Source: Schmidtea polychroa (lineage: Eukaryota). Taken from it: a stretch of 64,000 nucleotides of DNA. The notes beneath the pieces are model-generated. The model ran no database searches and had not been told where the DNA came from. It saw nothing but the letters and a program-made list of their open reading frames with translations. Positions 1 through 22,091 of this stretch are shown here, in pieces (the stretch's first letter is position 1; each line of letters starts with the position of its first letter). Both the position numbers and the translations under genes were made by a program. The stretch spans positions 8,308,001-8,372,000 of the forward strand of contig CM097887.1 of NCBI GenBank assembly GCA_044892525.1. The letters run 5' to 3'.

Positions 1-49
1 AGCAATAGCGAAAGCGGATAACGGAGATAACAACAATCAAGAACCGAAA

Positions 50-3000
50 ATGAATCAATTTATACCAGGAGCGCACCAAATTTTCAAACCACCACAAGGA
101 CGATCAAACGGGAATAATGGTAATCGTAACAACCCGAATAATGAGAACAATTTCAATAATCGGCGAAATATGAACGATAACAAGCAGTGCCGAACATGCG
201 GTAAACCAGGACACTGGGACAGAGATTGTTATAGAAATTCAAATTGTAATCGTTGCGGACGGCGTGGACATACCGAAAATGTATGCCAATTGCGAGGCTG
301 TTTTAACTGTGGTCAGCCAGGTCACATCTCCAGAGATTGCCGAGAAAGGGGCCAACAACAACGACCACCACAGCGAAATAATAATTATATAGCGAATCCG
401 CAACGACAAAGTAACCCTAACGAAGGAAAACAAATGAACGTTATGCAGGAAATTTCGCAGATGAAACAGATGATGCAACAAATGATGAGACCAAGACAAG
501 AATCAGCACCACAACAAACCCAGAATATACGTATGATGAGGAGTACCGAAAATCTCAACAATTATGAAGTGCATCAACATGTACAAGAATGGCAAAGGCT
601 ACAGGCCGAGGAAGAGAGGATAAAACAAGAACGCAACCAACAACGACAAGAACAACCATTGCGAATAAATATGATGAAGTTAGTAAAAGACATGAAGAGC
701 CAGTATTGCTACAATTACGGGAAAAGCCCAAGGGTAGTACCCATGACTGAACCAGAAAAAGTAAAGGAAATAACAACGGAAATGAAAACAGAGAATTCAA
801 CCACGATTTCAAAAGGAAACCAGAGAATTCAGAAAATATTCTGGAAAAAGATAAAGGATAAAATCGAAAAAGAACATAATAAAGCGAAAACCGAGACAGA
901 AGATGAAAATAACAAGAGCAAGGAACAAACCAGTCAACTAAACCACCAAATGCTACAAGAATCAGAATCAGAAGAAACAACAATATTCGAAAGAAAGAAA
1001 CTAAAGAGAGTACCAAGGATGAGAAACTTGCAAATCAATATGATGAAAAGGACAAAAGATGAAGCATCGTCAGACGAAGAAGAAGATTATGTAAGTAGTT
1101 TGGGTGGAGAAATACTACAGCCGAATGAAATAAGCGAACCCCCAAAAGGGGAAATCAAAGAGGAAGAAAGCGGAAACGAGATAACCAGTGAAAGTGAAGA
1201 CGAAGATATCGAAATAAAGTTGAGAAAAGCAAGGGAGGAAGCGATAAAACAGGTAGCCGAAATACTCCCAGTAGTAGTGAGAAACCAAGAGTTCATCGAC
1301 GTAATACCATTCAGGCGATTCGTGCAAAAAGTGATGAAATTGGAAAGAAACGAGAAAGATCTAATACCAAACGAGGAAAAATCAATTATAAAAAATTATA
1401 TGGAAAAAATGAAGCAGGCCGATACCACGCGGTATGTAATAAAAATTGGAACGAGTAGAGGACTTGAAAGAATGTGGATAAAAAATACAGTCACCGACGA
1501 ACTTTTCGATTGGATACGAGAACATTTGGGAAGTTCGAGAAAGAAAGAATATCTGTATCAATACCAAGGAGAACAGATCAAACCAGATATGCACTTAGTA
1601 GATGCACTAATATGGCCAGGAGAAACGCAAATACTGAAGTTGCATAAAGAAAAACAACCAGCCAACCTTTACGATTGGGCTAAAGATGCCAAGGCAGAAT
1701 ATGATTTTAATATCAAATTGAAATTAGAACAAATAAAACAATGTACTCTGAGACGAAACCTGGATAAGCTGATCAAACAAATTCAAGAACAAGTAGAAGA
1801 CAACTGGGATTTACTCATCACCAGACGAGCCCCAGCCATGTACGAACTAATGAGCCGGTTGCGAGATACAGAAATGCTCCGAATGAGTGATTGGAGAACC
1901 ATAAATTTGATCCACAAATATGGAAGGTTAAAAGAAACCCAGCCACAGAGGTTGGAAATAACCATATGGTTACCGAACGAAGAAAAACGACGAATAAAAA
2001 TGAGCAATCAGAGTACAGTGGATGACTTGGTATCAAAAATAAACCAAGAGATAACGGAAAAGGTACGTAGCGAAAGTAGTGATGGTATGGTGGATGATGT
2101 AGTCATGATGTACGATAAGATAATATTACGAGCGGAGGACGACACCTCGTTAAGCGAAATGGGTATGTGGGACAATCATCAGATAATCAGGATAGTACCA
2201 ATGGATGAATTCCGAACAAGAGATGTAACATATCAAAAAGAAATACGAGACCGGATGAAAACGTTATATCAAAAATCTACAGAAATAATTGAAATCCACC
2301 AACAATGGTTAAAAGAAAAAGAGCTACAAGGAAAAATCACGAAATTAAATACCAGATCCTGCAGACGAACCCCATGGGAAAGAGTGTGGAATGCAGAAAA
2401 TAAGGAATGGGAAATCCGGAAAGGAATCTTCGTAGAAACAGACATTGGTGAGACAGAAAGTGAATCGGAGGAAGAAGAAGAGGAACCCCCAGAATATGAA
2501 GAGGAAGCAAGGGGACAGACATCAGATGACGAAAGCGAGACGGATGTCACATCAGAAAGCGAAAATGAAGCGAGACATATTCATGCAATGAGGAAAAAGG
2601 AACGTGAATATGCTGATATGGACGGCGAGGAAGCGACGGAAGCAAGAGAACGAGAAGAGAAAGAAAGATATAAACAATTAGGCGATATTTTAGCAATGGG
2701 AGCGAAAAATCAAAAACGCCAGGTAGTAGCGTTGGCTAATATCATCTTAAAAACATCAGAGAATATCCACAATCTGAGAGGAATGGCAAAGGCAATAGAG
2801 GAATACCGGCAATATAATGAATGGTATCCAGAACAGCTAGAACAAATTATTCGAAAATGGAGAAATCAGGAATGGGCACAAGACACCCAGGAGAGGTATC
2901 ACATCCGAATCAAGTATCCGGACAAGAGCATCGAGGAACTAGAGGTGCATCCAACAACAAAAATTAGAGAATTAAAAAAGAAATTAGCATATGAAACTCC

Positions 3001-6000
3001 ATTCCATCTGCAACTGTTCGGAAAATCACTAGACGATAATGCAGACGTCGGGATAACACCCATGAGATTGGAAGAGACAAATGTATTAACAATGGCAGAA
3101 ACGTTGGGAAAACCGTTAAAAAGGAAAAGTAAAATTATTAAACCAACAAAAGGCAGTTTGAGTACTCCAAGTCCGAACAAAGCACCAAGTAAATCTAATG
3201 AAACTGAAGAAGTTGAAGAGATAATCCTGGAAGATAGTGACGATGAACCAGGAGAAAGATCACCGCTATTAGTGAGATGGCCGACAGGAGCCGAAATGTG
3301 GACTAATAACCAGCCATCAACGAGTTATCAACAACCAACGAAACTGAACATCAAAGAAATCATCGACAATACTACGGAAACCGAAACGGATGAACAATTC
3401 CAGAAGCAAAGAGAACCAACGAAAGTAACACCAGAAAGTCAAACCGACAAAATAATAGACGAATGGAATGAGTGGCTAAGAAATAACGATAGCTCATTAC
3501 CCAGAACGGATAACGAAAGAAATCCGAATTACGAAAATACCAGAGAAGCCGGAACGATGATGGAAAAACGGGCAAAAGGAAGACCGAAGAAACAAGGAGA
3601 AAAGTCTGAGTTCAAAACCAAAGAACAATTAAAGCAAGAACAAGGGCAAGTTCGATTAGAAAAATTGGATAAAATAGTATGGGATCTAAAGGAAGCCCAA
3701 CCAACGATCGAAAGAGGAGAAAAATGGATACGAGAATTGTTAAAAGATATGTTAATAATAACAAACCCACAACTTCGACGTTTGTGGCAACGGAAAGTAG
3801 CCAGTACGGAAGCTAGACAATTATGGCACACCATTTCGGGGATAATCCCAAAGTTAATCAAAGAGAAAACGAAAACCACCAAAACAGATTGGGACGAAAC
3901 AAAGAGAGTGATTGAGCAGCTCACGACAAATGCAAATGATGACGAGCATCACCTAGTGGTAATCACTTATTTGATGTATAATTTGATGGGACTAGCTGCG
4001 AGGAAAATACCAAATAAACAGTTTGCAAATCATGTGGAAATGACCGTTTCAATCATAGAGAATACTATTGAACCACATATTATTCGTGCCGGAGGATGGA
4101 AAAGACTTATACAAGCGCCACGGAAAAATGAGCAAGAAAGGTCGATGCAAGTTAGATTGAAAAAACTATTAAATGAACTAGAATGGGAACTACCAATGAA
4201 AGATCCCGCAAGCAGAAAAGCATCAATAAATTCGTTAATGATGACTATGATGATATGGATGTTGTGCACAAGTGGAGCAACAGGCTTCACCATCTACGAT
4301 TGTGATAATATGATAATGAGAGATAAATACTCATTGAGAGACATAGAAGAATGCAGACAAGCCTCACCCAACAAATTGGACATCGTGAGAACAAAAGTTA
4401 CTTACCATGTATATCAAGAATCAGATTTCATCAGAACGCAAGCAAGGGAATGCGTAGTATCAAAAAAGGTACTCGCATATTACTGTGGACAATATTCGTA
4501 TTCGACTCTTATACTACCCGGTCTGGATAAGGAAATCGTATCAATACAACGAGAGGATTGTAAAGAGCTATTTAGAACCGGAGCGCTAAAAATGCATAAC
4601 GGAGTGACAATTCACGGACAAACTGGAATGATTAAAACCGAAAGTGTTTACGTATCCGGAAAAGTAAAATCATCAGATGGGTCATGTAACGGGGGGACGT
4701 ATACGATCCGAGGCGAGGTAATATCGGGAGTTGTAGTGATCGAGTCTTACACGGTCGAATTAAAAGAATACGAAGCGCAATTTGACGCAAATAATTACCA
4801 AATGAAGACCAACCCAGCGTGTAAAGCTACAGAAAACGTATGCAGGACAGGAGTATCAACTATAATCTATGAAGCTAATACCCAAAAATGCCGACTCCAA
4901 CTGTTAAAAAGTGCTTTGTTCAATGAAGTAAAAGGAGAAATATATGAGAACGAGAACGACGAGGATGGAAACGACAGAGTGAGAATGCGAAATGGAAAAC
5001 CAATGCCACCATCTCCCAGAGAAAAGAGACTTTCAACGCAGAAGACACCAACAGCATTAATCACAGACGATCCAGATCTAGGTATGAGATTTATCAAAGA
5101 GAAAGAAACCACCAAATGTGACAGTATAGTATATAAAACCAATTACGCAGGTATCTACATGTCGAGACAAATAATCGATAGAGCAGTGGGAAAGATAGCA
5201 ACGGAGGACGTAAAACTGTACTTATATGCAAATAATAAAATGGATTTTCTATTTCATCGCGGACAAACGACCTTGCAAAAAGTATATTACGATCTGATAC
5301 AAAACGATTGTTCATTGAATAAAGAAATATTGAAAACAAAGCTAGCTATTGCGATAACGCACCCAGATAACACGATGCCATCACTCCCATTACCAGATGG
5401 ACACTTTGGTAGAATGGTAGGAGAAGTGATGTACACATACCAGTGTACCAAGACGTATGCACGAATGCCAGAAAAATCCATACTACCCGAAAAGAGATGT
5501 GCAAATGAATTAGAAATTCGTTATAAAGGACAAAATCGATTCGTCCAACCAGTCACTAGAATTATGAATCCAGTGGGTTTCTACCCAAATCTCTTTAACT
5601 GTTCTAATGCATACGGACCTTTGTATGAAAGACCCGATGGGAAATGGATGATGTTACCGGGAAAAACCATATCCGAGGAACCCAAGAAATTTGGATTAAT
5701 AGAACTCGCCACAGAGCTGGATTTCAAACCTATAGACGTGTCAAACGGTGGTATGTATTCCCCAGAAGACCTAGAAACAGCACGACTTAACGTACTCTTC
5801 CCAGCCAGACGAGAATCCATTTTGTCAAATATGGTCACAATAACTGGGGGCACAAACTATCAATCAGGCCCGAATTACGAGCTGCTATTATCACCAGACC
5901 ATTTTCAACAAGCTACGTCAAACATGATGAAAGCAATGTGGGGAAGATTCTTAGTTTTTGGACAAATGATGGCCGGGATATTAGGGATCATACTCATAAT

Positions 6001-9000
6001 TCAGATAGTCAGAGTAATACTAACACAAATGTTAGCTTGTTTCGATATATACAAGCGGGAAAAGAAAGTTAACTGGAAAATGATAGTAGGTTTCTTACCA
6101 TTTTTAGCTAAGACCATGGTATTACATGGCCACTCAAAAGACATTCATCGGATAAAGCGATTGATTAAAATATTAACAAAGATTAAAGGAACCGACGAAG
6201 AAGTAGGCAGACGATTCCGGAAAGCAATGTACGATGAAGCAACAAGACGACAATTGAAAAAGAATAAGCCAAAATTCTTGGACCGATTTAGAAGCCAATC
6301 ATCTAACAGCGATAGTGACGACGATGATAACGGGAACGATAAATGTCTTTATCCAAACAGAAACCCAAACGAAAAACCAATGGAAACGGCACCATATTGG
6401 GAAAAGGAAAAGACAAACACCTGGATCGCCAATGGAAGCTATATACCACCGGATATCGTGGGACCACAAGCAGCTTTGACCATGACACAAAATATGTATC
6501 CGCAATTACCGAGTCAACCCGGTATGCATTATATGCCAACACGACGTACCAAAAGTGTAGATCAAGCAGATGACGTAAGAACAATAGCAGCGATGAGTTT
6601 ACCTGGAGGTCCAGCAGTAACAGTTATGATTCAAATCAATGGTAAAGAAACCAATGCTATGATAGACACCGGAGCTAATGTATCAGCGATAGCGATTAAT
6701 CAAATTCCCAGTAAACACTGGAAAGATATCGAATCAACAACAATTCACATCATAGCATGTAGTAAAGAAACAGTGGACGTGGTCGGAAGATGGTGGACTA
6801 CATTGAGATACCAGGACAACGAAATTGAAACGTATTTGGCAGTAATACCAAAACTTAGCGTACCATGCATAATCGGAACGGATTTGATGCCAGAATTGTT
6901 AAAAGAAGTCGTAATTGACTTAACAACCATGTGTTTAAAAGACAAAACCGGTAGAATATGCAAAATGAATGCAGTCATCAGATGTCCAGAAAAAATAATA
7001 GTACCAGCAAAATCGCAGATGATTTGTCAGATAAAAGTGGATACGGGTATGGAAGGAGAAGTTATCTTTGAACCAAGCAAGTCATTTGAAAAGCGACGAG
7101 AATTACCACTCGCAAGAGAAATAATCACAATAAACCAAGAAGGAGTGATACCGCTCAACATCACGAATTTCGAAGAGGAAGACAAAATCATTTATGAGAA
7201 CGAAAAATTGGGAAGATTGACCCCAATGATGGACATAGAATTACCGAAAGTGACCAACGAGATGATCAAAGATGATGAATTATGGACAATAGATAGTATG
7301 TTGTTGACGAATGATGAAAAGAAAAAATTACACCGATTGTTGGTAGAATATAAAGATATATTCGCCATCTCAGATTTAGACTTGGGTACATGTGATGTTA
7401 CCTTACATGCAATACCACTCATAGACGAAACCCCAATTGCATTGAGACCATACAAGCTAGCAGAAATGCAGAAAGAAATAGCCGAAACAGAAGTACAAAA
7501 GATGCTAGACGCAAAAGTAATCGAACCAAGTTGCTCACCCTGGCAATTCCCAGTGGTCATGGTAAAAAAGAAAGATGGCACCCAACGATTCTGTATCGAT
7601 TATCGGAAGTTAAACGCAGTGACCAAGAGAGATACCTATCCATTGCCGGACATCAATGAGATGTTATTGATGTTGCAAGGGGCAGCATATTTTACTTCTT
7701 TAGATCTAAAAAGTGGATACTGGCAGATTAAAGTCAAAGATGAGGACAAAGAGAAAACAGCTTTCACGTTGGGACGAGATCTATATCAATTCAGGAAAAT
7801 GCCATTTGGACTGACCAACGCACCAGCATCATTTCAACGGTGTATGAACTTTGTCACCCATGGAATCAAACAATGTATGGTATATATTGATGATTTACTA
7901 ATCTATTCAGCGACATTTGAACAACATCTGGAAGATATCCGAAACGTATTTATTAGATTAAGACAGTGGAAACTCAAACTCAAACCATCAAAATGCGATT
8001 GGGCAAAGGAAAAAGTCACGTTTTTAGGACACATAGTGTCAGCTAAAGGAAAGGAGCCAGATCCAAGAAACATTGAGAAAATAAAAACATGTCCAGCACC
8101 GAAAACTGTCACCCAAGTTCAGGAATTTCTAGGATTATGCGGATACTATCGCAAATTTATCAAAAATTATGCAGGAATTGCAAAACCAATCCAGGAATTA
8201 GTAAAGAAGGATATTTCGTTCATTTGGGAAAAAGAACAACAACAGGCGTTCGAAACGCTGAGAGATAAACTAATCGAAGCACCTATCCTCGTACACCCAG
8301 ATTTTAAGAAGCCATTTCTATTGGCAACGGATGCAAGCGGGTACGCGGCAGGCGCGATTCTGGGACAATTAGACGATGAGGGAAAAGAGAGAGTAATCGG
8401 GTATTACAGTCGAACATTCAAAAAGCACGAAAAGAACTATTCGGTAACAGAACGAGAAGCATTGGCTATAATACAAGCTATCAAACACTTCCGATATTTA
8501 CTATGGGGACATGAGATATGCATAACCACAGATCATCAACCATTAGTGTGGTTAGGGCAACATAAAGAAGCGTCCAGTAGACTGATGCGATGGGCCATGC
8601 AATTGCAAGAATACTCCCCATTTATAAAATTCAAAGCGGGAAGAGCAAATGCCAACGCCGATTGTATGTCAAGATTTATTTTCCCAGATTTGGTGGATTC
8701 AGAAATGCAACGCATATGCTTAATAGTAGCGGAAGATTTGGATTTCTGTCAATTACGAAAGGACCAACAAGAGGACGCGGAATTAAAACAAATTATCGAT
8801 TATGTAAAAACCGGAAAGACAGAGGTATATGCGAAAGACCAAAAATTAAAAGAACATATGGATAAACACCGACACCGATATATTATAGAGAAAGATTGGT
8901 TGCTGATAATGGATGGGGAAAAACGATTAATGTGTATACCGGAAAACCGACGAAAAGAGTTACTAACGCAATATCACGATGGGAGATTGGGAGGACATAT

Positions 9001-10162
9001 GTCATCGAAAAAGACGTTAGCAAGAATGAAACAGAAATATTTTTGGCCTACGTTAACTGAAGATGTAACTGAATGGGTAAAAAATTGTCTAACTTGTGCA
9101 ACCAGGAAGAATACTGGATCGAAATGGAAAGCACCTTTAACGCCAATGCCAGTACCAATAGAACCAATGACAATGATATCCATGGACGTAGTTGGTCCAC
9201 TACCAGAGTCAGATAAAGGAAACGTTTACATTCTAGTGATCACAGACTTTCTTACGAAATTCCCAGAAGCATTCGCGATGCCAGACCAAAAAGCTAAAAC
9301 AATCGCAAAAATTTTGGTAGAAGAGATATGTTGCCGATATGGAACACCAAAACAAATCTTAACCGATCAGGGAACTAATTTTATGAGTGAGATAATGAGC
9401 GAAGTAACAAACTACTTCAAAATAGCAAAACTAAGAACATCTCCATACCACCCTCAAACCAATGGGATGACGGAAAGATTTAATGGAACACTTATACAAA
9501 TGTTATCAAACTACGTTGACCGTCACCAACGAGATTGGGACGAATATATAAACCTATGTCTTATGGCGTACAGAATGTCGATTCACGCATCAACGAAAAT
9601 GAGCCCATTCAAATTAATGTACGGAAGAGAATGTAATATGCCAATGGACCTAGAATACCAACCACCGATATCGCAGTATATGGAGATCGATGATTATGTT
9701 ACGAAATTCAAGGAAAGAATGCAAGAAATTTGGGAAACTGCGGGATTAAATATCAAGTTCTACCAGGAAAGTTATAAAGATTTACACGATCGAAAGAAAA
9801 ACGTGAAGCAACATACGTTCCAAACAGGTGATTGGGTAATGATAGAAACCCCGGAATTGATTCCAGGAACCACAAAAAAGTTACAACGCAACGGAAAAGG
9901 ACCATATGAGATCTTATTCGTAGGCGAAACTAATGTAAGAGTGAAATTGGTAAATAACCCCTTTACCAGACCAATATACGTAAACGTGGCACGATGCAAA
10001 TCAATTCCAAAAACAGCCACTAGTCAACCAGAAGGCCGTACATTAACCACACGTTCGCAAACCTACCGAATGAACATGATGCAACAACTCGCAGAACCGA
10101 TCACTGGACGATTAGGTATCCAACCATCAGAAGCGGAAAAGATTGTAAGAGGTAAAAATTAA
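50..10162 (+). CDS. Gag-(UBL x3)-(Bcl-2-like)-Env-Pol polyprotein, >3370 aa, 5'-truncated by the window (frame open back to position 2)
   Basis: CCHC knuckles 188-340; protease AMIDTGA (D at 6665); RT YIDD (7883-7894); RNase H TDAS/TDHQPL/NADCMSR (~8315-8670); integrase H-x6-H...CLTC, DVVGP, TDQG, NGMTERFN, GPY motif (~8975-9990). No stop codon in 10.1 kb. Confidence 0.97.
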   Translation: MNQFIPGAHQIFKPPQGRSNGNNGNRNNPNNENNFNNRRNMNDNKQCRTCGKPGHWDRDCYRNSNCNRCGRRGHTENVCQLRGCFNCGQPGHISRDCRERGQQQRPPQRNNNYIANPQRQSNPNEGKQMNVMQEISQMKQMMQQMMRPRQESAPQQTQNIRMMRSTENLNNYEVHQHVQEWQRLQAEEERIKQERNQQRQEQPLRINMMKLVKDMKSQYCYNYGKSPRVVPMTEPEKVKEITTEMKTENSTTISKGNQRIQKIFWKKIKDKIEKEHNKAKTETEDENNKSKEQTSQLNHQMLQESESEETTIFERKKLKRVPRMRNLQINMMKRTKDEASSDEEEDYVSSLGGEILQPNEISEPPKGEIKEEESGNEITSESEDEDIEIKLRKAREEAIKQVAEILPVVVRNQEFIDVIPFRRFVQKVMKLERNEKDLIPNEEKSIIKNYMEKMKQADTTRYVIKIGTSRGLERMWIKNTVTDELFDWIREHLGSSRKKEYLYQYQGEQIKPDMHLVDALIWPGETQILKLHKEKQPANLYDWAKDAKAEYDFNIKLKLEQIKQCTLRRNLDKLIKQIQEQVEDNWDLLITRRAPAMYELMSRLRDTEMLRMSDWRTINLIHKYGRLKETQPQRLEITIWLPNEEKRRIKMSNQSTVDDLVSKINQEITEKVRSESSDGMVDDVVMMYDKIILRAEDDTSLSEMGMWDNHQIIRIVPMDEFRTRDVTYQKEIRDRMKTLYQKSTEIIEIHQQWLKEKELQGKITKLNTRSCRRTPWERVWNAENKEWEIRKGIFVETDIGETESESEEEEEEPPEYEEEARGQTSDDESETDVTSESENEARHIHAMRKKEREYADMDGEEATEAREREEKERYKQLGDILAMGAKNQKRQVVALANIILKTSENIHNLRGMAKAIEEYRQYNEWYPEQLEQIIRKWRNQEWAQDTQERYHIRIKYPDKSIEELEVHPTTKIRELKKKLAYETPFHLQLFGKSLDDNADVGITPMRLEETNVLTMAETLGKPLKRKSKIIKPTKGSLSTPSPNKAPSKSNETEEVEEIILEDSDDEPGERSPLLVRWPTGAEMWTNNQPSTSYQQPTKLNIKEIIDNTTETETDEQFQKQREPTKVTPESQTDKIIDEWNEWLRNNDSSLPRTDNERNPNYENTREAGTMMEKRAKGRPKKQGEKSEFKTKEQLKQEQGQVRLEKLDKIVWDLKEAQPTIERGEKWIRELLKDMLIITNPQLRRLWQRKVASTEARQLWHTISGIIPKLIKEKTKTTKTDWDETKRVIEQLTTNANDDEHHLVVITYLMYNLMGLAARKIPNKQFANHVEMTVSIIENTIEPHIIRAGGWKRLIQAPRKNEQERSMQVRLKKLLNELEWELPMKDPASRKASINSLMMTMMIWMLCTSGATGFTIYDCDNMIMRDKYSLRDIEECRQASPNKLDIVRTKVTYHVYQESDFIRTQARECVVSKKVLAYYCGQYSYSTLILPGLDKEIVSIQREDCKELFRTGALKMHNGVTIHGQTGMIKTESVYVSGKVKSSDGSCNGGTYTIRGEVISGVVVIESYTVELKEYEAQFDANNYQMKTNPACKATENVCRTGVSTIIYEANTQKCRLQLLKSALFNEVKGEIYENENDEDGNDRVRMRNGKPMPPSPREKRLSTQKTPTALITDDPDLGMRFIKEKETTKCDSIVYKTNYAGIYMSRQIIDRAVGKIATEDVKLYLYANNKMDFLFHRGQTTLQKVYYDLIQNDCSLNKEILKTKLAIAITHPDNTMPSLPLPDGHFGRMVGEVMYTYQCTKTYARMPEKSILPEKRCANELEIRYKGQNRFVQPVTRIMNPVGFYPNLFNCSNAYGPLYERPDGKWMMLPGKTISEEPKKFGLIELATELDFKPIDVSNGGMYSPEDLETARLNVLFPARRESILSNMVTITGGTNYQSGPNYELLLSPDHFQQATSNMMKAMWGRFLVFGQMMAGILGIILIIQIVRVILTQMLACFDIYKREKKVNWKMIVGFLPFLAKTMVLHGHSKDIHRIKRLIKILTKIKGTDEEVGRRFRKAMYDEATRRQLKKNKPKFLDRFRSQSSNSDSDDDDNGNDKCLYPNRNPNEKPMETAPYWEKEKTNTWIANGSYIPPDIVGPQAALTMTQNMYPQLPSQPGMHYMPTRRTKSVDQADDVRTIAAMSLPGGPAVTVMIQINGKETNAMIDTGANVSAIAINQIPSKHWKDIESTTIHIIACSKETVDVVGRWWTTLRYQDNEIETYLAVIPKLSVPCIIGTDLMPELLKEVVIDLTTMCLKDKTGRICKMNAVIRCPEKIIVPAKSQMICQIKVDTGMEGEVIFEPSKSFEKRRELPLAREIITINQEGVIPLNITNFEEEDKIIYENEKLGRLTPMMDIELPKVTNEMIKDDELWTIDSMLLTNDEKKKLHRLLVEYKDIFAISDLDLGTCDVTLHAIPLIDETPIALRPYKLAEMQKEIAETEVQKMLDAKVIEPSCSPWQFPVVMVKKKDGTQRFCIDYRKLNAVTKRDTYPLPDINEMLLMLQGAAYFTSLDLKSGYWQIKVKDEDKEKTAFTLGRDLYQFRKMPFGLTNAPASFQRCMNFVTHGIKQCMVYIDDLLIYSATFEQHLEDIRNVFIRLRQWKLKLKPSKCDWAKEKVTFLGHIVSAKGKEPDPRNIEKIKTCPAPKTVTQVQEFLGLCGYYRKFIKNYAGIAKPIQELVKKDISFIWEKEQQQAFETLRDKLIEAPILVHPDFKKPFLLATDASGYAAGAILGQLDDEGKERVIGYYSRTFKKHEKNYSVTEREALAIIQAIKHFRYLLWGHEICITTDHQPLVWLGQHKEASSRLMRWAMQLQEYSPFIKFKAGRANANADCMSRFIFPDLVDSEMQRICLIVAEDLDFCQLRKDQQEDAELKQIIDYVKTGKTEVYAKDQKLKEHMDKHRHRYIIEKDWLLIMDGEKRLMCIPENRRKELLTQYHDGRLGGHMSSKKTLARMKQKYFWPTLTEDVTEWVKNCLTCATRKNTGSKWKAPLTPMPVPIEPMTMISMDVVGPLPESDKGNVYILVITDFLTKFPEAFAMPDQKAKTIAKILVEEICCRYGTPKQILTDQGTNFMSEIMSEVTNYFKIAKLRTSPYHPQTNGMTERFNGTLIQMLSNYVDRHQRDWDEYINLCLMAYRMSIHASTKMSPFKLMYGRECNMPMDLEYQPPISQYMEIDDYVTKFKERMQEIWETAGLNIKFYQESYKDLHDRKKNVKQHTFQTGDWVMIETPELIPGTTKKLQRNGKGPYEILFVGETNVRVKLVNNPFTRPIYVNVARCKSIPKTATSQPEGRTLTTRSQTYRMNMMQQLAEPITGRLGIQPSEAEKIVRGKN
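188..340 (+). other. Three tandem CX2CX4HX4C zinc knuckles (nucleocapsid)
   Basis: CRTCGKPGHWDRDC, CNRCGRRGHTENVC, CFNCGQPGHISRDC. Confidence 0.97.
1430..3091 (+). other. Three ubiquitin-like domains in the polyprotein (~1430-1645, ~1952-2200, ~2897-3091)
   Basis: The third aligns by eye to ubiquitin: LEVHPTTKIRELKKKL...FGKSLDD vs LEVEPSDTIENVKAKI...FAGKQLED. The second has I.LP..KRRIKM...STVDDLVSKI...DDTSLSEMGM. The first is SUMO/UBL-like (YQYQGEQIKPD) and weakest. Confidence 0.65.
3770..4108 (+). other. Bcl-2-like domain in the polyprotein
   Basis: BH2-like PHIIRAGGWKRL (GGW at 4091-4099), preceded at the expected spacing by a helix pattern matching the BH1/alpha5-6 region (TKRVIEQLTTN...HHLVVITYLMYNL...HVEMTVSII). 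The NWGR motif is not conserved. Confidence 0.65.
4226..6130 (+). other. Chuvirus/mononega-like class III fusion glycoprotein (Env) with internal signal peptide and C-terminal TM
   Basis: Hydrophobic signal (LMMTMMIWMLCTSGATG) then FTIYDC..YSLRDIEEC, DGSCNGGTY, CDSIVYKTNY, YANNKMDFL...YYDLIQNDC.L.KEIL, GEVMYTYQC, CANEL..F.QP.TRI, GMYSPEDL...FP.RRESIL; TM ~5948-6022. The motif series matches my recollection of chuviral glycoproteins. Confidence 0.85.
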
Positions 10163-10214
10163 AATACCTGGATGGGCAAAAGATCGATTAGATTTCGAAA
10201 TATTAGGAGGATTA

Positions 10215-13200
10215 TTGACGATGATCGAGAACTATGCAAATAGAGAAAGGACACACCCATTATTGCGAGTAGTCAAAAGCCAATGGCCAATATTATTTAC
10301 AATAACAGATCAATACGGAGACACACCATTACACAAACTCATGAAAGTAGGTAACAACGAGCAAATACTAGAAACAATAGAAGCATTTCACGACTGCAAG
10401 CGATCAACAGAACAAACAAACAACCAAGGTTACACACCATTAATGATAGCCGCAAACAGAGGCAAAACCAAAGACATTATAACCGCATTACTCGATACCG
10501 GATCGAAAATAACTACACAAGACCACGAGCGGAAAAACGCTCTACATCATGCCATCGAAGGGAGAAGTACCGAGGCGTTCACGTCATTGATGGAACTACT
10601 ATCATATGAGGACAATCGGGAAGTCGGAAACATGTATGATGGATTGTTAACAGCGATCAAAGAAAAACTGACGACAATTACCGGAATATTAATTACATGG
10701 AGAAGTCCAATTCAAAACGATTATATGATCAACGTAAACGAAGCGTTCACGAGAGGAGAGAACACGCTGATGAGAGAAGCTATGAAAGGACATCATTTAT
10801 TCGAAATCCCGAATCAATTACTAGAACGAGGGATAAAATTCACAAATCACAAAGACGAACAGTTAACAAAAAAGCGAATCGACACATTCGAAAAATCACT
10901 ATTCCAATTTACTAACCAAGTACGAAATAAATATTGGGAAACGGTAAGTGTGTTATATATGATGGACACAATGAATAACATCCGCGAGAATTACCTGGAT
11001 ATTATCCAAATACTTACAGCAGAGGAACGAATCAATAATCCAAACGGAAAGAAAACGAAAATAAGGTATGAGAAATCCAGGGAATCAAAGTCAACAACGA
11101 ACCAAACGGTCATAAACAACGTCATCGAAACCAAATCAATGAGTATAGATCAGGAGGCAATAATACGCAAAGCGAAAGAGGTATTCTTTGAGGAAATGCT
11201 AGAGTTGTCAGACGAAATAATATTGTCAAAAATAATAAAAGCTGTACATACATACGCAAGAGATCAAACCACGGGTTTAGATATCGGGAAAATCAAAACC
11301 TTCTTGCCTCGAGCATTTACGATGGTAACGAAGGATTCCAGAACACCCCTACAACAAGCAATACTAGCAGCGAAAGAAAATAGAGCAATAACGATCGTGA
11401 GAATCCTTGGAGATATGGGCGAGGAAACCAACACGAAAAATGAACAAGGCGAAACCGCCATGATGTATGCAGCTATAACAAAAATACACCCAAAAACACT
11501 CCACATCCTACATCAATCAGGATCGAAACTAGACGAAAGGTCCAATGAAGGAAATTCCACCTTGGACTGGGCAACCATACAGCCAAACCTAGAAATGATC
11601 AGATTTATTTGCAAAAATGCGACAAAAGAAGAAGTTGAAAATATGTGCAAAAACACATCTCAGTTTCAATGGAATACGGTACGGAAAAATCTAGAAGCAA
11701 TGAAATTATTATTAACCTGGAGAGTACCACAAAATAATAAATATGCGATAAATGTAAACGAATTCTACGAAAACGGAGAAAATGCGATGGTAAAGAATAC
11801 CCTAACGAAGGGGGGGACGCCTAAAATCATTTTAGTAGTATTAAATAGAGAAGACCTAAAATTCACGCAAAATCAGAACGAGCAACAACGAATTGGGAAA
11901 CATCGTCGTATGCAATTGAGAGAGTTAGTCAAAGAATGGAATAGAAAGAGGCATGCTGCAACGGGCAGGAAGGAGTTTGAATTCGAAGCAAAATTAGCAA
12001 GAAACAGAGTGCTAACAGCATATCGCAGATTATTGAACGATATAAATGTCGAGGACGACATTTTAAACGACAGCGGGGGAGATAAACACGATGACAATAA
12101 CGGAAAAGGCCGAAAGGAGGATAAAGAGAAAAGAGAACCGGAGGAGGGTAAACCGGAAAACAAGGATTCGGATACGAAAAGAGAGGGAAACAGCCCGGGA
12201 ACTAAGACCAAAGAGGAGGAAAAATCGAATAATGGAAAACAGAGGGTATGCCTACCTTTCACTAACAAAGAAATAGAGACAAATATGATATTAATGATAA
12301 TTATGCTTACCATGATAGAGTTAGTAACAGCTCATGGAGGGACGAGGACGATAAAAGAAACCAAAGAAGCGGAGAATCAAGATAGCAAAGAGGACGAACT
12401 AAAACAAGAAAAGAAAAAGCAAGCACAAGAGCAGCAGTGGGATTTAAAGGAAGAATGGGACTTAAAGGAAAGGTGCATACTAGGAAGATGCATGTCTAGA
12501 GCGTATCAGAAACTAGTACTGATAAATGAGGACACAGAACCAATAACAGAAGTAAGAATACAAGAAGCATACCGAAACCGAGACGGGAAAAGAATAACGA
12601 ACGTTAAAGGAAAAGAGGTACACCTAGGAAAAGGTGGCGAAGTAGTAATAACGCAGCTCCAACCAAGAAAAGAGCACAAAGTCTGTATTTCAAGATTAGG
12701 ACCGGGTGAGAGATGCCATCAATATGTGACGCAGCAGCAGCCTCCGAAGGAATATACGGTTTGTATCTGGAGAAACGAATCAAAAAGAGAATGCCGACGA
12801 TACCCGGGGAAAAGAGGAAAGAAAAGGAAAAACCACGACGAAAAGGACGAAGGAGGAAAGCACAAGAAAACTGGTGAGGAAGCTCAGGACAACTATGTTT
12901 CGGAGGAAGAGATGGAAAAAATACAAAAGATGGCAAAGGAGGGTATGAACGAGGAAATAGCAAGAATACGGGAAATGATGAAAGGAAATGGCAAAAGAGG
13001 AAACGAGAAAAGTACAGAAGCGATATCAACATTAACAAACAAGGAAAAACCAGAGAGTATAAGCGTGAAGCAGATGATGTGGATCAGTGGGATAATAATA
13101 ACAGGGGCATTCCTAATCATAACGGGGGGAACAATAAAAATAATTAAGGATAAACGACATCGCGGAGAACTAGAGATGACTCGAATCAGAAATTTCCAAC

Positions 13201-13286
13201 ATCGAGTGAAACGACCAAGTGATATCAAACAAGAACAGTGGGTGGAGGCCTGGAACGCTCAGCGCCCTCCAAACTCACGTATATAG
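10215..13286 (+). CDS. Ankyrin-repeat protein (two ~340-aa-spaced ANK modules) fused to an internal signal peptide, FN3-like ectodomain and TM; first ATG 10221, frame open from 10149
   Basis: ANK motifs GDTPLH, GYTPLMIAA, KNALHHAI, RTPLQQAI, GETAMMYAA, GNSTLDWA; duplicated TWRxP..Y.INVNE motif (10695, 11715); hydrophobic segments 12285-12332 and ~13074-13145. Confidence 0.85.
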   Translation: MTMIENYANRERTHPLLRVVKSQWPILFTITDQYGDTPLHKLMKVGNNEQILETIEAFHDCKRSTEQTNNQGYTPLMIAANRGKTKDIITALLDTGSKITTQDHERKNALHHAIEGRSTEAFTSLMELLSYEDNREVGNMYDGLLTAIKEKLTTITGILITWRSPIQNDYMINVNEAFTRGENTLMREAMKGHHLFEIPNQLLERGIKFTNHKDEQLTKKRIDTFEKSLFQFTNQVRNKYWETVSVLYMMDTMNNIRENYLDIIQILTAEERINNPNGKKTKIRYEKSRESKSTTNQTVINNVIETKSMSIDQEAIIRKAKEVFFEEMLELSDEIILSKIIKAVHTYARDQTTGLDIGKIKTFLPRAFTMVTKDSRTPLQQAILAAKENRAITIVRILGDMGEETNTKNEQGETAMMYAAITKIHPKTLHILHQSGSKLDERSNEGNSTLDWATIQPNLEMIRFICKNATKEEVENMCKNTSQFQWNTVRKNLEAMKLLLTWRVPQNNKYAINVNEFYENGENAMVKNTLTKGGTPKIILVVLNREDLKFTQNQNEQQRIGKHRRMQLRELVKEWNRKRHAATGRKEFEFEAKLARNRVLTAYRRLLNDINVEDDILNDSGGDKHDDNNGKGRKEDKEKREPEEGKPENKDSDTKREGNSPGTKTKEEEKSNNGKQRVCLPFTNKEIETNMILMIIMLTMIELVTAHGGTRTIKETKEAENQDSKEDELKQEKKKQAQEQQWDLKEEWDLKERCILGRCMSRAYQKLVLINEDTEPITEVRIQEAYRNRDGKRITNVKGKEVHLGKGGEVVITQLQPRKEHKVCISRLGPGERCHQYVTQQQPPKEYTVCIWRNESKRECRRYPGKRGKKRKNHDEKDEGGKHKKTGEEAQDNYVSEEEMEKIQKMAKEGMNEEIARIREMMKGNGKRGNEKSTEAISTLTNKEKPESISVKQMMWISGIIITGAFLIITGGTIKIIKDKRHRGELEMTRIRNFQHRVKRPSDIKQEQWVEAWNAQRPPNSRI

Positions 13287-13806: not shown

Positions 13807-13891
13807 ACCAAACCTAGCTTAAAATGTAAATAAGTGTAAATAAAATATCGAACCTGTATCGATAAGAACTACTTGTACATATAATTATAGA

Positions 13892-15280
13892 ATGGATAAA
13901 CGACAAAGAGAAGAGTTCAGAGAGATTGTCGAGCAAGTCCGAAAATCTACAACGATCAGAATACACAAACATGTTATGTGCGGAATATGTGAAAAGTTGT
14001 TAAAGGAACCTCACCAAACGCAATGTGGATGCCGAGCATGTAAAGAATGTATCAGTGAAGCAATAAAGAATAGACCACAGAGGTGCCCGGTGTGCAAAGA
14101 GACACTAATATCGAGTTTAGAAGACACTAACGAGGATAAAGCCGCAGTGAAAGACATGTTAAACACCAACCTGGGATGCAAAAATGCCCCATGCGAATGG
14201 AAAGGAGTAATATGGAAGGTAGTACAACATATGGGAGAATGTATGTACAGAATTGGCCAGTGTGAAAGGTGCCATAAAACCATTCGAGCAAGCGAAGGAA
14301 AAGAGCATCAAAGGCAGTGTGAAGAGAGATTAGAAAGATGTGAACACTGTGGAGAAATAGATACGTGGATAAATCTCACCCTCAAACATCACAATGTCCC
14401 AGAGGAGAGAGTATGTGCAGAGTTCAGTGGGGAATGCCCAAACGGATGTAACCAAGGGGAAATAATGAAGGTGGCACAGCATCTAAGAGAATGCGAAAAG
14501 AAAAGAATGACATGCGTACTAGGTAGATGGGGTTGTCAGAAATTACTACACCGAGGTGAGTTACCACATCATTTAGTAGAAAATGCTTCAACTCACGCAG
14601 AAATGTGGTCGACTGCGTTACGAGAAAGCGAAGAGAAAGTAAAACAAATGGAGATAGAGATAACATCGTTGAAAGTGTTAGTCAAAGAACTACTAGAAGA
14701 AAGGGAAGCGTTCGAAGAAGCCCGAGCAAACATAAAGATGCAAATAAACCGAATAGAAATCAGTAATAATCAGGCCAAGGAGCTACATCAGAAAATACGG
14801 GAAATAAATCTAAATGAGATAACCCCAACAGCACCCTACATATGGAAAATAACGGGAGTAAAAGAAAGAATACGAAAAGCAAAAACCGGAGAAGAGACAA
14901 GAATAACAAGTCCTGCATTCCATTCTTGGAAAAATGGGTACAAAATGAAAATGAAGATATATCCCAACGGGGACGGAACCGGATTAGATACGCACTTTTC
15001 GATTTTCTTTCTGTTATGTAAAGGAGAATACGACGAAATATTAGAATGGCCGTTCCAGGCAAAAATCGATATTACTCTGATGAACAACCAAAGTATACAT
15101 GAGCAAAGCTTCAAAACAACGGGGAATCAAATAGCTTACCAGAGGCCCCTCAACGAAGAAGGATCAGCAACAGGAGCACCTACGTTCATCTCACAACAAA
15201 GAGTAGAAGATATGGCGAGAAATGATACCATATATATCAAGATGACCGTGAGGAAAGAGGAGAAGGGTAGAACGGAGTAA
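13892..15280 (+). CDS. Intronless TRAF-like protein (RING, TRAF zinc fingers, coiled coil, MATH)
   Basis: RING CGICEKLLKEP.QT.CGCRAC..C...CPVC; zinc fingers C.N..C.WKG....VQH..EC; MATH YIWKI...SPAF..W.NGYKM.MKIYPNGDG.GL.THFS.FF.L.KGEYD.IL.WPF. Confidence 0.95.
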   Translation: MDKRQREEFREIVEQVRKSTTIRIHKHVMCGICEKLLKEPHQTQCGCRACKECISEAIKNRPQRCPVCKETLISSLEDTNEDKAAVKDMLNTNLGCKNAPCEWKGVIWKVVQHMGECMYRIGQCERCHKTIRASEGKEHQRQCEERLERCEHCGEIDTWINLTLKHHNVPEERVCAEFSGECPNGCNQGEIMKVAQHLRECEKKRMTCVLGRWGCQKLLHRGELPHHLVENASTHAEMWSTALRESEEKVKQMEIEITSLKVLVKELLEEREAFEEARANIKMQINRIEISNNQAKELHQKIREINLNEITPTAPYIWKITGVKERIRKAKTGEETRITSPAFHSWKNGYKMKMKIYPNGDGTGLDTHFSIFFLLCKGEYDEILEWPFQAKIDITLMNNQSIHEQSFKTTGNQIAYQRPLNEEGSATGAPTFISQQRVEDMARNDTIYIKMTVRKEEKGRTE

Positions 15281-15473
15281 CCAATCGAATAATGTTGTAT
15301 ATAATAATCTGTATATATCGGTGTATATAACCAATAAAATATTATATAATAATAGTATGAAAACCCTAAATACGAAAACCCAAAAATGATGCGAAAATTC
15401 CCCAAGAAACAGTAAATAATGAATAAATTCCTTTTTCATAATAAAAAGATTAATCGATGTCTATGATTTAGAG

Positions 15474-16529
15474 ATGACACAAGAGAAAATAACCGAAACT
15501 GCGATAGCCCCAACCAATGTCAACAAGACACAAATTCCCCGAGAACATAACAAAAAATGGAACAAAGTAATGTTCCAACTAACTAATCTCACCCGAAACC
15601 ACATCGAAGAAACTAGAGAAGATGAGAATAGTCAATACCAATGGTTAATACACAACTTAAGAGCGGAAGCAGAAGCATGCAAAAGAGCATCAAAATGGGC
15701 GTCACTAGAAAATACCCGCCAAGAAGCACACAGCCACTACTTAAAGCAGCTAGTGCAGGAAGCGAGAAAGAGACTTACCGATGAGAACACCAAGCGCGAA
15801 GCGGAAAAACAAATAGAAGACAGGAAAATGATGCACTTAGTGGCAGAAGCGAGAAAATGGAAAAGACAAAACAGAGAAATGAAAAAAGAGATGAAAGAAT
15901 TGCCCATGAGACTCGGATATGAGAGCGAACAGGGCAAATGGGAGGAGAATTTAATAATAAAGGAAGAATTGAAAAGGTTGAGAAAGGTCGCCGCCCGAAG
16001 CCAAACCTGGCAAACAAAGGCTATGGAGTTTGAGCGACATTTGGCAATGAAGTGCGACATAAGAGAGCACGAGAATGCCGCAATGGAAGAGATGATAACC
16101 CAACAAGCGGGACGGGTTGTGGAATTAGTAAATCAGGTAGAAGAGATGAAAAGAGACCTTAATGGATTACAAGGATCGCTGGAACAAAGAAACATGGTCC
16201 TAGCGGGAAAAAACAAAAAATTAGAAAACGAAAGGAAAATGTACACCGAAAATATTAAAAACTTAGAAATAGAAATTGAAAAATGGAAGGGCGACGAGAA
16301 AGTCAAGGCCCTAGACAAACAGATAGAGGCGAAAGATGAAGAGACAAGGTATCTCACCTATCTGCTCGACGAGGAATTGAATATCACTCGAGCTCTAAGA
16401 GACGAAATTAATGAATTGAGAGCTCAAATCCCCCAATATTACCTACCATACGACCCTATTGCGATACAGTTACATTCCGCGGTCGATAGTGATGAAGGTT
16501 ATGTAGGCCAGGAGGAAACCTTCGTATGA
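15474..16529 (+). CDS. Long coiled-coil protein of unknown function (accessory ORF)
   Basis: 351-aa intact ORF, E/K/R-rich heptads. Confidence 0.7.
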   Translation: MTQEKITETAIAPTNVNKTQIPREHNKKWNKVMFQLTNLTRNHIEETREDENSQYQWLIHNLRAEAEACKRASKWASLENTRQEAHSHYLKQLVQEARKRLTDENTKREAEKQIEDRKMMHLVAEARKWKRQNREMKKEMKELPMRLGYESEQGKWEENLIIKEELKRLRKVAARSQTWQTKAMEFERHLAMKCDIREHENAAMEEMITQQAGRVVELVNQVEEMKRDLNGLQGSLEQRNMVLAGKNKKLENERKMYTENIKNLEIEIEKWKGDEKVKALDKQIEAKDEETRYLTYLLDEELNITRALRDEINELRAQIPQYYLPYDPIAIQLHSAVDSDEGYVGQEETFV

Positions 16530-16699
16530 GGGTGGATGAAAAGATGAAAAACTAAAAACCGGGACGTATATCCCAAACAAAAAAAATTAAAGTACAGTAA
16601 AAGTATTTGAGGGACTGTAACCCTGTGTAAATAAAAACGATATAAATGTATAAGTATAAGTCGCACTGTAGCGCATGATTAATTGTAAATATTATAGAT

Positions 16700-17398
16700 A
16701 TGAAAATCGAGGAAATGATAGAAATTATGAGCGACGTAGAAGAGGGAGAGATTGAGGCAGAAACAACAGAAACACAAACGCTAAAGGCCGAGTTACGGGA
16801 AGAGAAATACGAAAACGGGAGATTAATAAACAAATACCTGGAGGACCGGAAAATGATAAAGGTGTTAAAGAAAGAGTGCGAAGCGTTGGGGGAAATAAAA
16901 AGAGAAACGGAAGAGGAAAATGAATGGCTACACGAACAAAGGAAGCGAGGGAAAAACTGGGAAAAGATAGCGGGAGAACTATGGAAAGAGAGGGCAAGCT
17001 TCAAAGCAAAGGAGGTAATCCAAGACTACTGGAAAACTGAGGCGAAGGAGCGCCAAACAGCTATAAATAAATTAAAACGACAACTAGAAGAAAACCAACG
17101 GGAAAGTAAAGAAATGAGGAAGTGGGTCCGCAAATATAGAGAAATAGAAAGAAAACATCAACAACAAAATTACCTGCAAGAAAACGAACAAGATCTCCTA
17201 CAAATCGAGCTAAAAAGAAACCTTGAAAAGAAAAGGGAAGAAATTAGACGCTTGGAAAAAGAAATTAGACATCTAAAGAGAGAAGCCCGTGAAAAAGACC
17301 GACAATTGGAAATGCTGCCCGAGTTAAGACACAGGGTAATTAAAGCAGAGTCCACCTTGATGAGAATCGGCGAAAATAATCCAAATCAGAACCATTAA
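16700..17398 (+). CDS. Coiled-coil protein of unknown function (accessory ORF)
   Basis: 232-aa intact ORF, E/K/R-rich heptads. Confidence 0.7.
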   Translation: MKIEEMIEIMSDVEEGEIEAETTETQTLKAELREEKYENGRLINKYLEDRKMIKVLKKECEALGEIKRETEEENEWLHEQRKRGKNWEKIAGELWKERASFKAKEVIQDYWKTEAKERQTAINKLKRQLEENQRESKEMRKWVRKYREIERKHQQQNYLQENEQDLLQIELKRNLEKKREEIRRLEKEIRHLKREAREKDRQLEMLPELRHRVIKAESTLMRIGENNPNQNH

Positions 17399-17438
17399 AT
17401 TAAGGGTCATTAAAACCAATTGTAAATAAACATAATGA

Positions 17439-18107
17439 ATGTATAATAGTATCATGCGAGGCGAGATGATGATAACAATGATGGTATTGATGATTCTGAT
17501 GGAAAGCAAACAAATAGACGCCCAACCGAAAATCGTACGAGATTACCGAAATCAAAATCAAGAACCTAAACAAGAATCCAGTCAATGCACATACCCGATG
17601 ACCGTAAAAACCCATATCATCCAAACCATTCAATCAACCCGATCACACATCAACAACATCCAAACAATGTGTAAAAAGAATCCCATTTGTAAAATGATAA
17701 ACAAACAAATCCTCGAACAAATCCAACAATTCGACCAGTTGGAACAACAAATGCAACAAGAGAATTTTGGAAATCTGGTAGAAAAGCCAAAAATACCTCC
17801 CGAAATCAATGACACCCATTATCTCATATATGTGGTGATCGCAGAAACCCTCCTCCTATGTCTACCAATATTCATGAAAATTTACGAAGTTCGAAATAGA
17901 TGTAGAGTCTCGACATCAATAAGAGTAACCTCGAACCAAAATCCTCAAGAAGTGCCCCTGACAAATCTTAACCCATCCCCATTCCGACCTCGAACCCCGA
18001 GTAATCAACCAATCCAGCCGAAATCTAATAGTCAGACCTATCTCAACATCAATACCCAAACCAACCAACAGCCGCCAGCAGAAGCATCAATGGTTAACAG
18101 TTCATAA
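17439..18107 (+). CDS. Putative small type I membrane protein (accessory ORF)
   Basis: Signal-like MMITMMVLMILMES..IDA, Gln-rich ectodomain with 3 Cys, TM YLIYVVIAETLLLCLPIFM, Pro/Asn-rich tail; AATAAA follows at ~18214. Confidence 0.65.
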   Translation: MYNSIMRGEMMITMMVLMILMESKQIDAQPKIVRDYRNQNQEPKQESSQCTYPMTVKTHIIQTIQSTRSHINNIQTMCKKNPICKMINKQILEQIQQFDQLEQQMQQENFGNLVEKPKIPPEINDTHYLIYVVIAETLLLCLPIFMKIYEVRNRCRVSTSIRVTSNQNPQEVPLTNLNPSPFRPRTPSNQPIQPKSNSQTYLNINTQTNQQPPAEASMVNSS

Positions 18108-18669
18108 ACTCTAACTCAAACATTTGTGTTATTATATGTGGAAACTTTTATTGTATGTACAAACTATCACCTTAAGTGATACTTGCTTGATCTTGCTTTG
18201 ACCTTGATCTTACAATAAAAATTTTATCATTGTTGTATAATTTTCGTGTTCGTGTTATATTTTTTTTTGAATGAATGAATTAAGTTAATTATGCAATTGC
18301 GGGACGCAATTTTGATGGGTCCCCGAGTGATTTGTTGGGCTGAGTCGAAAATTTAATCGTTGAAAAATAAGAAAGTAGGGAAGTAGAACATTAAGAAAAA
18401 TAAAAATAAAATAAATAAAATCAGAAATAAAATAGAATAAGGTATAAGGAAAATAATAATTAAGACATAAGAATTAAAACAAAAAATAAAATTAAGAAAA
18501 GATTAAAATAGAACAAGTTGACAAATAAATAAAGAGGAATTCAAGAAATAATAAGGAAATTAAGGAAATAAATAGAAAAACATATTAAAAATAAAGAAAA
18601 TAAGGAGAAAACAACCTAAAAACAAGAAAATTATATTAAATTAATAGAAATAAGCGGTACTCAACTCTG

Positions 18670-18703
18670 ATTGGTCCGCACAAATAAGAATTTGATATAT
18701 ATA
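18670..18703 (+). promoter_or_regulatory. LTR core promoter: inverted CCAAT box (ATTGG 18670) and TATA (TATATATA 18696-18703)
   Basis: Both motifs are conserved in the solo LTR (25166, 25192); a conserved AG|GTAAGA donor lies ~50 nt after the TATA. Confidence 0.55.
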
Positions 18704-21962: not shown

Positions 21963-22085
21963 AACCCCAGTGGCGGTCAGGATGAGGAACAAGGATCCGA
22001 TCTATGTTGATTATGATGTTTTCTCTTCTTTCGACAAACATTAGTAAAGTGTACAGCTGAATCCTGGTGTCATAACGTTGAAATT

Positions 22086-22091
22086 AATAAA
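22086..22091 (+). terminator. Polyadenylation signal of the LTR transcription unit
   Basis: AATAAA followed by a TTGTTGTCTT GU-rich element, conserved in the solo LTR (~28351). Confidence 0.6.

Follow-up and report, generated by a model that had tools for sequence, protein, structure and literature searches.

Chuvirus-type class III envelope protein encoded in frame between Gag and Pol of a giant Burro-type element of Schmidtea polychroa, and its predicted processing

Polyprotein and domain order of the element

The 64,000-nucleotide stretch of the Schmidtea polychroa genome analyzed in this study (assembly GCA_044892525.1, contig CM097887.1, positions 8,308,001 to 8,372,000; hereafter, the window) reaches into a Ty3/gypsy retroelement of 30.4 kb that is bounded by two 4,165-bp long terminal repeats (LTRs). 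All features of the element described below lie on the forward strand, and coordinates are window positions unless they carry the genomic prefix G000. The 3' LTR (18333-22497; TG...CA) showed 0 mismatches to the 5' LTR, which lies upstream of the window (G000:C3:8300097-8304261), and is followed by a 4-bp target-site duplication (22498-22501), with the same four bases directly before the 5' LTR.

A single stop-free frame begins 910 bases ahead of the window, ends at position 10162 (2-10162 within the window) and encodes 3,575 amino acids from its first Met (G000:C3:8307435). The capsid domain, upstream of the window, was recognized by Retrotrans_gag (E 4e-12) and Ty3_capsid (E 2e-6) in searches counted from this Met. 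No matrix domain was found by Pfam ahead of the capsid domain, with which Gag thus begins. Three CCHC zinc knuckles of the nucleocapsid (zf-CCHC, 188-340) are followed by a weak ubiquitin-like stretch (2903-3007; Pfam ubiquitin E 0.023, below cut-off, and E 0.003 in a second family described below) and by a weak Bcl-2-like domain that ends in a BH2-like motif (3884-4108; Pfam Bcl-2 E 0.025). This domain lacks a separate tail anchor ahead of the envelope (env) signal. A profile of this region from three families of the genome retrieved the Bcl-2 family in all 60 PDB rows shown (E 0.04-0.07).

The env region consists of an internal signal sequence, a 26-residue uncharged stretch after a basic pair (4220-4285) with a predicted signal-peptidase site before 4286, a 554-residue ectodomain (4286-5947), a single predicted transmembrane (TM), stop-transfer helix of 21 uncharged residues (5948-6010) and a conserved second hydrophobic segment (6074-6127) that is predicted to be amphipathic and to lie in plane at the cytosolic side. 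The TM helix is the strongest hydrophobic window of the polyprotein, with a Kyte-Doolittle hydropathy over 19 residues (KD19) of 2.53. Downstream follow an aspartyl protease (PR; 6584-6964; RVP E 5e-10; protease motif at 6659-6676), reverse transcriptase (RT) and RNase H (RH) at 7562-8614 (RVT_1, RT_RNaseH) and, last in Pol, an integrase (IN) with H2C2, core and GPY motif at 8936-9907 (Integrase_H2C2, rve). A conserved stretch of ~110 amino acids between PR and RT, the site of Burro's dUTPase-like domain, matched 0 Pfam families.

This order bore out the original prediction that signal, ectodomain and TM lie within an unbroken Gag-Pol frame upstream of the protease, and that the element has gypsy order with integrase last. 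Env also lies between nucleocapsid and protease, as had been proposed, but adjoins neither, because ~1,290 codons separate the last zinc knuckle (ending at 340) from the env signal and ~190 codons separate the TM from the protease. Likewise, the ectodomain that had been called Cys-rich does contain 14 Cys, although at 2.5% the enrichment is modest relative to the upstream (1.1%) and downstream (2.0%) flanks. It contains one N-glycosylation sequon.

The PR-RT-RH-IN order in Pfam, Retrotrans_gag, a Ty3_capsid match just under its cut-off, the three CCHC knuckles and a gypsy-type RT_RNaseH all place the element in Ty3/gypsy. DUF5641 and the Pao protease gave no match in Pfam. Membership of the Anakin type of BEL/Pao elements was considered and rejected in view of the Ty3-type capsid and RT_RNaseH and the position of env ahead of PR. 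On these sequence criteria, the element was identified as a young, intact, giant Ty3/gypsy element of the Burro type that carries a class III envelope protein.

Fold, selection and distribution of the envelope protein

A chuvirus-type glycoprotein had been predicted, and the Pfam profile PF24664 (Monjiviricetes_fusion) matched at 245.6 bits against a cut-off of 27 and could therefore not be attributed to chance (E 1e-72 on the region alone). In the ESM Atlas, PF24664 clusters ranked first (0.97), followed by clusters of rhabdovirus G, gB and gp64, all with a low recognition value. HMMER searches against cluster representatives gave 1,891 matches at E ≤ 0.001, 150 of which were listed. Word-based homologue searches and scans of metagenome and viral contigs yielded no match at E ≤ 0.001 and were uninformative, since HMMER did find homologues. 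Searches of the PDB with a single sequence and with six sequences gave 0 matches and 1 irrelevant match, respectively. Of the 38 PDB rows obtained with a profile of 124 family sequences, 37 were herpes gB (best E 0.0014).

A structure model built from the 124-sequence alignment had a predicted local distance difference test score (pLDDT) of 88.4, a predicted template-modeling (pTM) score of 0.71 and, as a monomer, a central helix of 48 residues; a model from 6 sequences (pLDDT 31) was not used. With Foldseek, each of the 36 PDB rows shown was herpes gB (best E 1.4e-13). In BFVD, glycoproteins of chu-related and other negative-strand viruses came out on top (E 1e-34, template-modeling scores up to 0.70). 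An N-terminal signal and a C-terminal TM flank the ectodomain, as judged by hydropathy and conservation at positions -1 and -3 only. The predicted similarity to class III fusogens thus withstood structural comparison, and the model and profiles identify env as a class III fusogen of the chuvirus G/herpes gB type, with predicted fusion activity.

Decay of env across copies, a possibility raised with the original prediction, was not seen. Searches of the genome gave 624 candidate env matches, and all 40 that were scored were 99-100% identical. With at most one mismatch, markers for the Bcl-2 region, env and PR occurred 129, 128 and 139 times. When 83 listed places of the Bcl-2 marker were paired with 100 listed places of the PR marker, 73 pairs resulted, of which 71 were spaced by 2999-3001 bases, one was 256 bases shorter and one was much longer. 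None of these 73 paired copies lacked env, and 10 places were left unpaired. Over 4.9 kb, 19 of the 20 best copies were open. In the ectodomain, these 20 copies contained 49 synonymous and 5 non-synonymous variants and 1 stop, which corresponds to a ratio of non-synonymous to synonymous polymorphism (pN/pS) of 0.031, compared with 0.103 upstream and 0.066 for PR and the start of RT. These sequence comparisons indicate that env is under strong purifying selection, does not decay across copies and, as judged by sequence tests, is functional.

Two further families with the same domain order were found in the same genome (families 2 and 3), with ectodomains 37-38% identical to that in the window. 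By a motif test, 25 of 30 family-2 loci were open from BH2 to the protease. A degenerate pattern intended to find more env families lacked specificity (21,028 matches, against 29,079 in the control). Among 23 database matches that were scanned, 19 of them picked for a length above 740 amino acids and 4 stand-alone, 11 carried PF24664 and, behind it on the same chain, an aspartyl protease; RT was present as well in 5 of these. An ectodomain tree was calculated from 62 sequences (17 polyprotein-type or close fragments and 45 others), with 60 of 122 usable rows left out. In this tree, the 17 polyprotein-type ectodomains and one further fragment formed one clade (support 0.983, midpoint root).

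Several related proteins differed in layout. In P0003, P0006, P0007, P0011 and P0015, two or more aspartyl-protease stretches were seen behind env, which suggests tandem duplication of the protease. P0086 contains a chuvirus-type glycoprotein in frame behind DUF5641, with an internal signal. DUF5641 is linked to Pao elements, and P0086 probably represents a fusion of Pol and Env in a BEL/Pao element. The entry P0008 is filed as a hypothetical protein of a Flavobacteriaceae metagenome-assembled genome but is a polyprotein of gypsy type (env-PR-RT-IN), and it likely reflects eukaryotic contamination of the bin.

Processing and membrane topology of the polyprotein

Residues around the ectodomain start were compared in 153 proteins, 102 of which had a conserved ectodomain start behind a hydrophobic stretch, this being the filter that defined the set; the start was internal in 21 and N-terminal in 81. 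Signal peptidase follows an established -1/-3 rule. At the internal starts, position -1 was small in 20 of 21 proteins and position -3 was small or aliphatic in 21 of 21, against a background of 27% small residues. The corresponding counts for N-terminal starts were 64 and 67 of 81. In each of the three families, the ectodomain is followed by one strong TM and then by a weaker, amphipathic segment (hydropathy 1.2-1.4, hydrophobic moment 0.74-1.06) that holds Pro and Lys/Arg and that also occurs in stand-alone glycoproteins. No third hydrophobic peak was found ahead of the protease motif in the 10 homologues in which this motif was located. The original proposal that signal peptidase and the TM together return Pol to the cytosol was thus strengthened by inference from hydropathy, -1/-3 counts and the missing third peak.

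These observations make it probable that signal peptidase cuts before env and that a single TM returns Pol to the cytosol in this Burro-type element with a class III Env. Gag and the accessory domains would be made in the cytosol, after which the internal signal (4220-4285) would direct the chain to the endoplasmic reticulum and signal peptidase would cut before 4286. The N-terminal half would be left anchored by the signal helix, at the position that a tail anchor takes in Bcl-2 proteins; the absence of a matrix domain from Gag fits with a membrane anchor supplied in this way. The ectodomain would fold and trimerize in the lumen and the TM would halt transfer, with the second segment lying along the cytosolic leaflet. 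PR-RT-RH-IN would be made as a C-terminal extension of the Env tail, because the TM stops transfer after the ectodomain. A single crossing is the topology adopted, as the work of RT and IN has to take place in the cytosol. The protease of the element would free the enzymes and parts of Gag at a recurring four-residue motif, and particles may bud with Env at secretory membranes and use class III fusion to gain entry into other cells.

The candidate protease motif gave 9 matches versus 1.6 in shuffled sequences, in a test biased by post hoc definition of the motif from the window sequence. Several matches lay at domain borders, among them the two ends of PR, where candidate self-cleavage motifs occur at 6584 and 6965. 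The motif resembles the Ty1 sites, with hydrophobic P2/P2', described in PMC6952103. A protease site just ahead of the signal, in the style of the flavivirus anchored capsid, was rejected: the motif was absent there, and families 2 and 3 had none at this place. Also rejected was a -1 slippery site conserved ahead of env as a source of extra Gag. The three families had 4, 6 and 4 slippery heptamers there, a density no higher than in other regions, and one heptamer of the window family had a stable downstream fold (z -3.2), with none in the other two families.

Retroelements normally package Pol by means of a Gag-Pol fusion, with the ratio set by frameshifting or splicing. Signal cleavage would part Gag from Pol and keep Pol on the Env tail until the protease acts; a cleaved internal signal between Gag and Pol would therefore require another packaging route, most simply the Env tail. 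A tentative, rather doubtful extension of the model is that there is no lasting Gag-Pol fusion at all: Pol would enter particles as the tail of Env trimers, which would also cluster the protease for its activation, and Gag would be held at the same membrane by the signal helix, serving at once as tail anchor of the captured Bcl-2-like protein. If so, Env would be needed in every round of copying, even within one cell, and its incorporation, not frameshifting, would determine how much Pol particles contain relative to Gag. Equal (1:1:1) synthesis of Gag, Env and Pol, as originally proposed, would result only if unspliced RNA were the sole message and no recoding occurred, and would not imply equal packaging once Gag and Pol had been cut apart. 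The topology of chuvirus-type glycoproteins would also be constrained, in that the second segment cannot cross the membrane if the downstream enzymes are to work.

A number of observations weigh against this reading. Processing, topology and fusion are predictions, in which signal and TM were called from hydropathy and counts of -1/-3 residues. Among the three families, the window family has the signal of lowest hydrophobicity (KD19 1.27), and in three homologues the second segment reaches a KD19 of 1.5-1.7, near the TM range. The protease motif occurs at 2 places in family 2 and at none in family 3. The similarity to gB comes with template-modeling scores of ~0.4 and a root-mean-square deviation of 10-13, and pN/pS was calculated from the 20 copies with the best match to env, a choice that favors intact copies. 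The Bcl-2 match stays under the Pfam cut-off, and the ESM Atlas gave no Bcl-2 match for this region. A BH2-like motif lies 46-81 residues ahead of the ectodomain in 7 lineages and was missing within 120 residues of it in 12 of 16 database proteins checked; because of these 12, the in-frame position of env is taken to be independent of the motif. A 240-residue Bcl-xL chain could be aligned with family 2 from BH2 into the signal over stretches of equal length (E 0.72 and 0.23), and the env signal helix could, at the level of a weak indication, represent the tail anchor of the Bcl-2-like domain.

An unlikely alternative, and the one that survives best, is that the single frame is a genomic layout only, with Gag-Pol and Env(-Pol) made from different spliced or subgenomic RNAs at unequal levels, in the manner of retroviruses and Drosophila gypsy. 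Retroviruses as a rule express Env from a spliced mRNA, and a spliced product is also made by Cer1, a gypsy element with a single frame (PMC10309623). Donor-like sites occur at 1091 and 2063, and an in-frame Met at 4196 would create a normal N-terminal signal peptide; family 3 has such a Met too, but family 2 has none before the hydrophobic core. Acceptor-like sites behind env are weak and no denser than within env, and, with no stop after the TM, any Env message would carry Pol as well. Packaged spliced RNA would moreover tend to leave env-less copies, of which there were 0 among the 73 pairs. Four contig runs of uncertain kind were compared, three of them guessed to be RNA. In these three, none of the 15 joints listed of 65 skipped env; a DNA-type joint, 1305-7778, was present at a depth of 3.7. 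In run X6, one contig had a loose poly(A) end at window position 17098, inside the element before the LTR, which may reflect internal priming.

Somewhat less probable still is that the polyprotein is processed as proposed but that Env serves cell-to-cell fusion or intracellular anchoring and assembly, and not entry of released particles. In the copies that have spread through a single genome, Env is constrained like the enzymes, which fits a need for it in every copying round, and a Gag that starts with capsid must obtain its membrane anchor from elsewhere. Entry by gB-type errantivirus env is itself stated to be unknown (PMC13524379). Against this, the whole ectodomain with its disulfide Cys is kept in an alignment of 124 sequences, stand-alone glycoproteins among them, and in structure it comes closest to viral glycoproteins. 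It is very improbable that the second segment also crosses the membrane or that the signal is ignored, with the fusion a tolerated accident lacking a working topology: although this segment is conserved with a KD19 of up to 1.71, and 7 of 70 stand-alone glycoproteins have two peaks above 1.6, the segment is amphipathic with Pro and Lys/Arg, a second crossing without a third would place PR, RT and IN in the lumen, at odds with identical LTRs and more than 100 near-identical copies, and the -1/-3 pattern and purifying selection speak against an ignored signal. Cleavage by signal peptidase with a single return of Pol to the cytosol therefore stays the preferred reading.

Genomic setting, accessory genes and comparison with known elements

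The primer-binding site is the complement of the 3' end of tRNA-Pro(TGG) genes in the host genome. ARAGORN detected tRNA-Pro in loci L068 and L069 and no tRNA in locus L067. The tRNA-Pro(TGG) genes of L068/L069 are arranged in tandem with a period of 475 bp (G000:C1:130.90-130.95 Mb), and the 3' end of the primer tRNA had 2,190 matches across the genome. A RING open reading frame (ORF; E 3e-11) lies upstream of gag, and a tandem array of 72-74-bp units occupies the 5' leader between this ORF and gag (L022 7668-8179). Behind the polyprotein follow an ankyrin-repeat ORF (10149-13286; Ank_2 E 5e-21), a TRAF-like ORF with RING and MATH (13844-15280; TRAF-mep_MATH E 2.5e-27) and three more ORFs (15423-18107), two of them coiled-coil-like, of which 17439-18107 has signal-like and TM-like stretches. 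A Pfam scan of 15423-16526 and 17439-18104 gave no family above cut-off, and no BIR domain was reported among the scanned ORFs.

Two hydrophobic stretches can be read from the translation of the ankyrin ORF, a further internal one that is signal-like (12285-12338) and one that is TM-like (13074-13136). A family-2 copy (L066, G000:C4:73216598-73226602) carries a further internal signal, ectodomain and TM in frame after the integrase, an arrangement similar to that of the ankyrin ORF of the window. A signal/stop-transfer layout occurs twice per element in this way. From its translation, the family-2 copy also appears to hold a nested element with a non-LTR-type RT (G000:C4:73206464-73212871). 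Within the LTR in the window, an ORF of 253 codons (21201-21962) is open also in a diverged second LTR-like copy (27468-28223). This copy (24825-28765; 81-85%), 2.3 kb past the 3' LTR, probably represents a solo LTR that is older and stems from a related family. Further on, what we take, by eye, to be a RhoGAP-like host exon and transposase-like remnants occur at 30326-31465, 37046-38439, 48821-49471 and 51332-51982.

The novelty implied by the original prediction did not hold, as an in-frame env between gag and pol has been published for Burro (PMC6431247), and gB/chuvirus-type env next to a gypsy pol, the GAG-ENV-POL order included, has been published as well (PMC13524379). Burro or GYPSM1 elements are giant gypsy-like elements of dugesiid planarians (Jurka, 2007; Grohme et al., 2018, via Arkhipova and Yushenova, 2019, PMC6431247), whose in-frame env was published in 2019 (PMC6431247). 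They share with the present element a length of ~30 kb or more (here 30.4 kb), multi-kb LTRs and many copies (here 128-139 marker matches). Env lies in frame between a BCL2-like domain and PR in Burro and also here, with a weak BCL2 match. The Burro cargo of TRAF/MATH, ankyrin and RING/BIR-type domains has counterparts here in MATH, ankyrin and an upstream RING. ORF1 of Burro1, as described, encodes 4,873 amino acids versus 3,575 here, where MATH resides in a downstream ORF; by this ORF length, the element in the window is not Burro1. Env of Burro was linked to gypsy Env and mononegavirus fusion proteins (PMC6431247) and is here resolved as class III.

Errantiviruses with an HSV (herpes simplex virus)/gB-type env have been described from Platyhelminthes, Nematoda and Bryozoa (Chary and Hayashi, eLife 2026, PMC13524379). 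These share a Ty3/gypsy pol, a gB-type env like Chuviridae glycoproteins, the GAG-ENV-POL order and many near-identical copies. By eye, family 2 differed from Smed_errantivirus_2 of that study at 4 of 251 residues in domains I-II. The window family had no close match among its six S. mediterranea entries, and the nearest, Smed_errantivirus_5, agreed by eye in 30 of the first 60 columns. The words "fused" and "polyprotein" are absent from the main text of PMC13524379, and processing is not discussed in the sections covered. Layout and env class were thus already known, and what is added is the assignment of a further Burro-type family to class III, together with copy-level evidence of strong selection on env. 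A literature search, with subscription journals mostly outside its reach, found no publication on signal-peptidase processing or topology of these polyproteins; as far as such searches show, processing is the part still unpublished and the part that would matter.

Known elements and viruses offer partial parallels. The Anakin elements of mosquitoes share a chuvirus-type glycoprotein within an LTR element, but belong to BEL/Pao (Dezordi et al., 2020, PMC7642597), whereas the present host element is gypsy; in P0086, likely of Pao type, the glycoprotein follows DUF5641 and does not precede the protease. Atlas virus, a belpaovirus of hookworm, shares a single stop-free polyprotein that includes Env, but this Env is class II and C-terminal and Gag-Pol stays joined, whereas Env here separates Gag from Pol (PMC9094657). 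The arrangement proposed here bears a likeness, by analogy only, to that of flaviviruses and alphaviruses. Structural polyproteins of these viruses combine an internal signal and stop-transfer sequences with cleavage by host enzymes. A second analogy is provided by foamy viruses, in which Pol is packaged without a Gag-Pol fusion and the Env leader stays in the membrane (PMC7828637); foamy Pol is made from a spliced mRNA, whereas Pol of the present element would come on the tail of Env.

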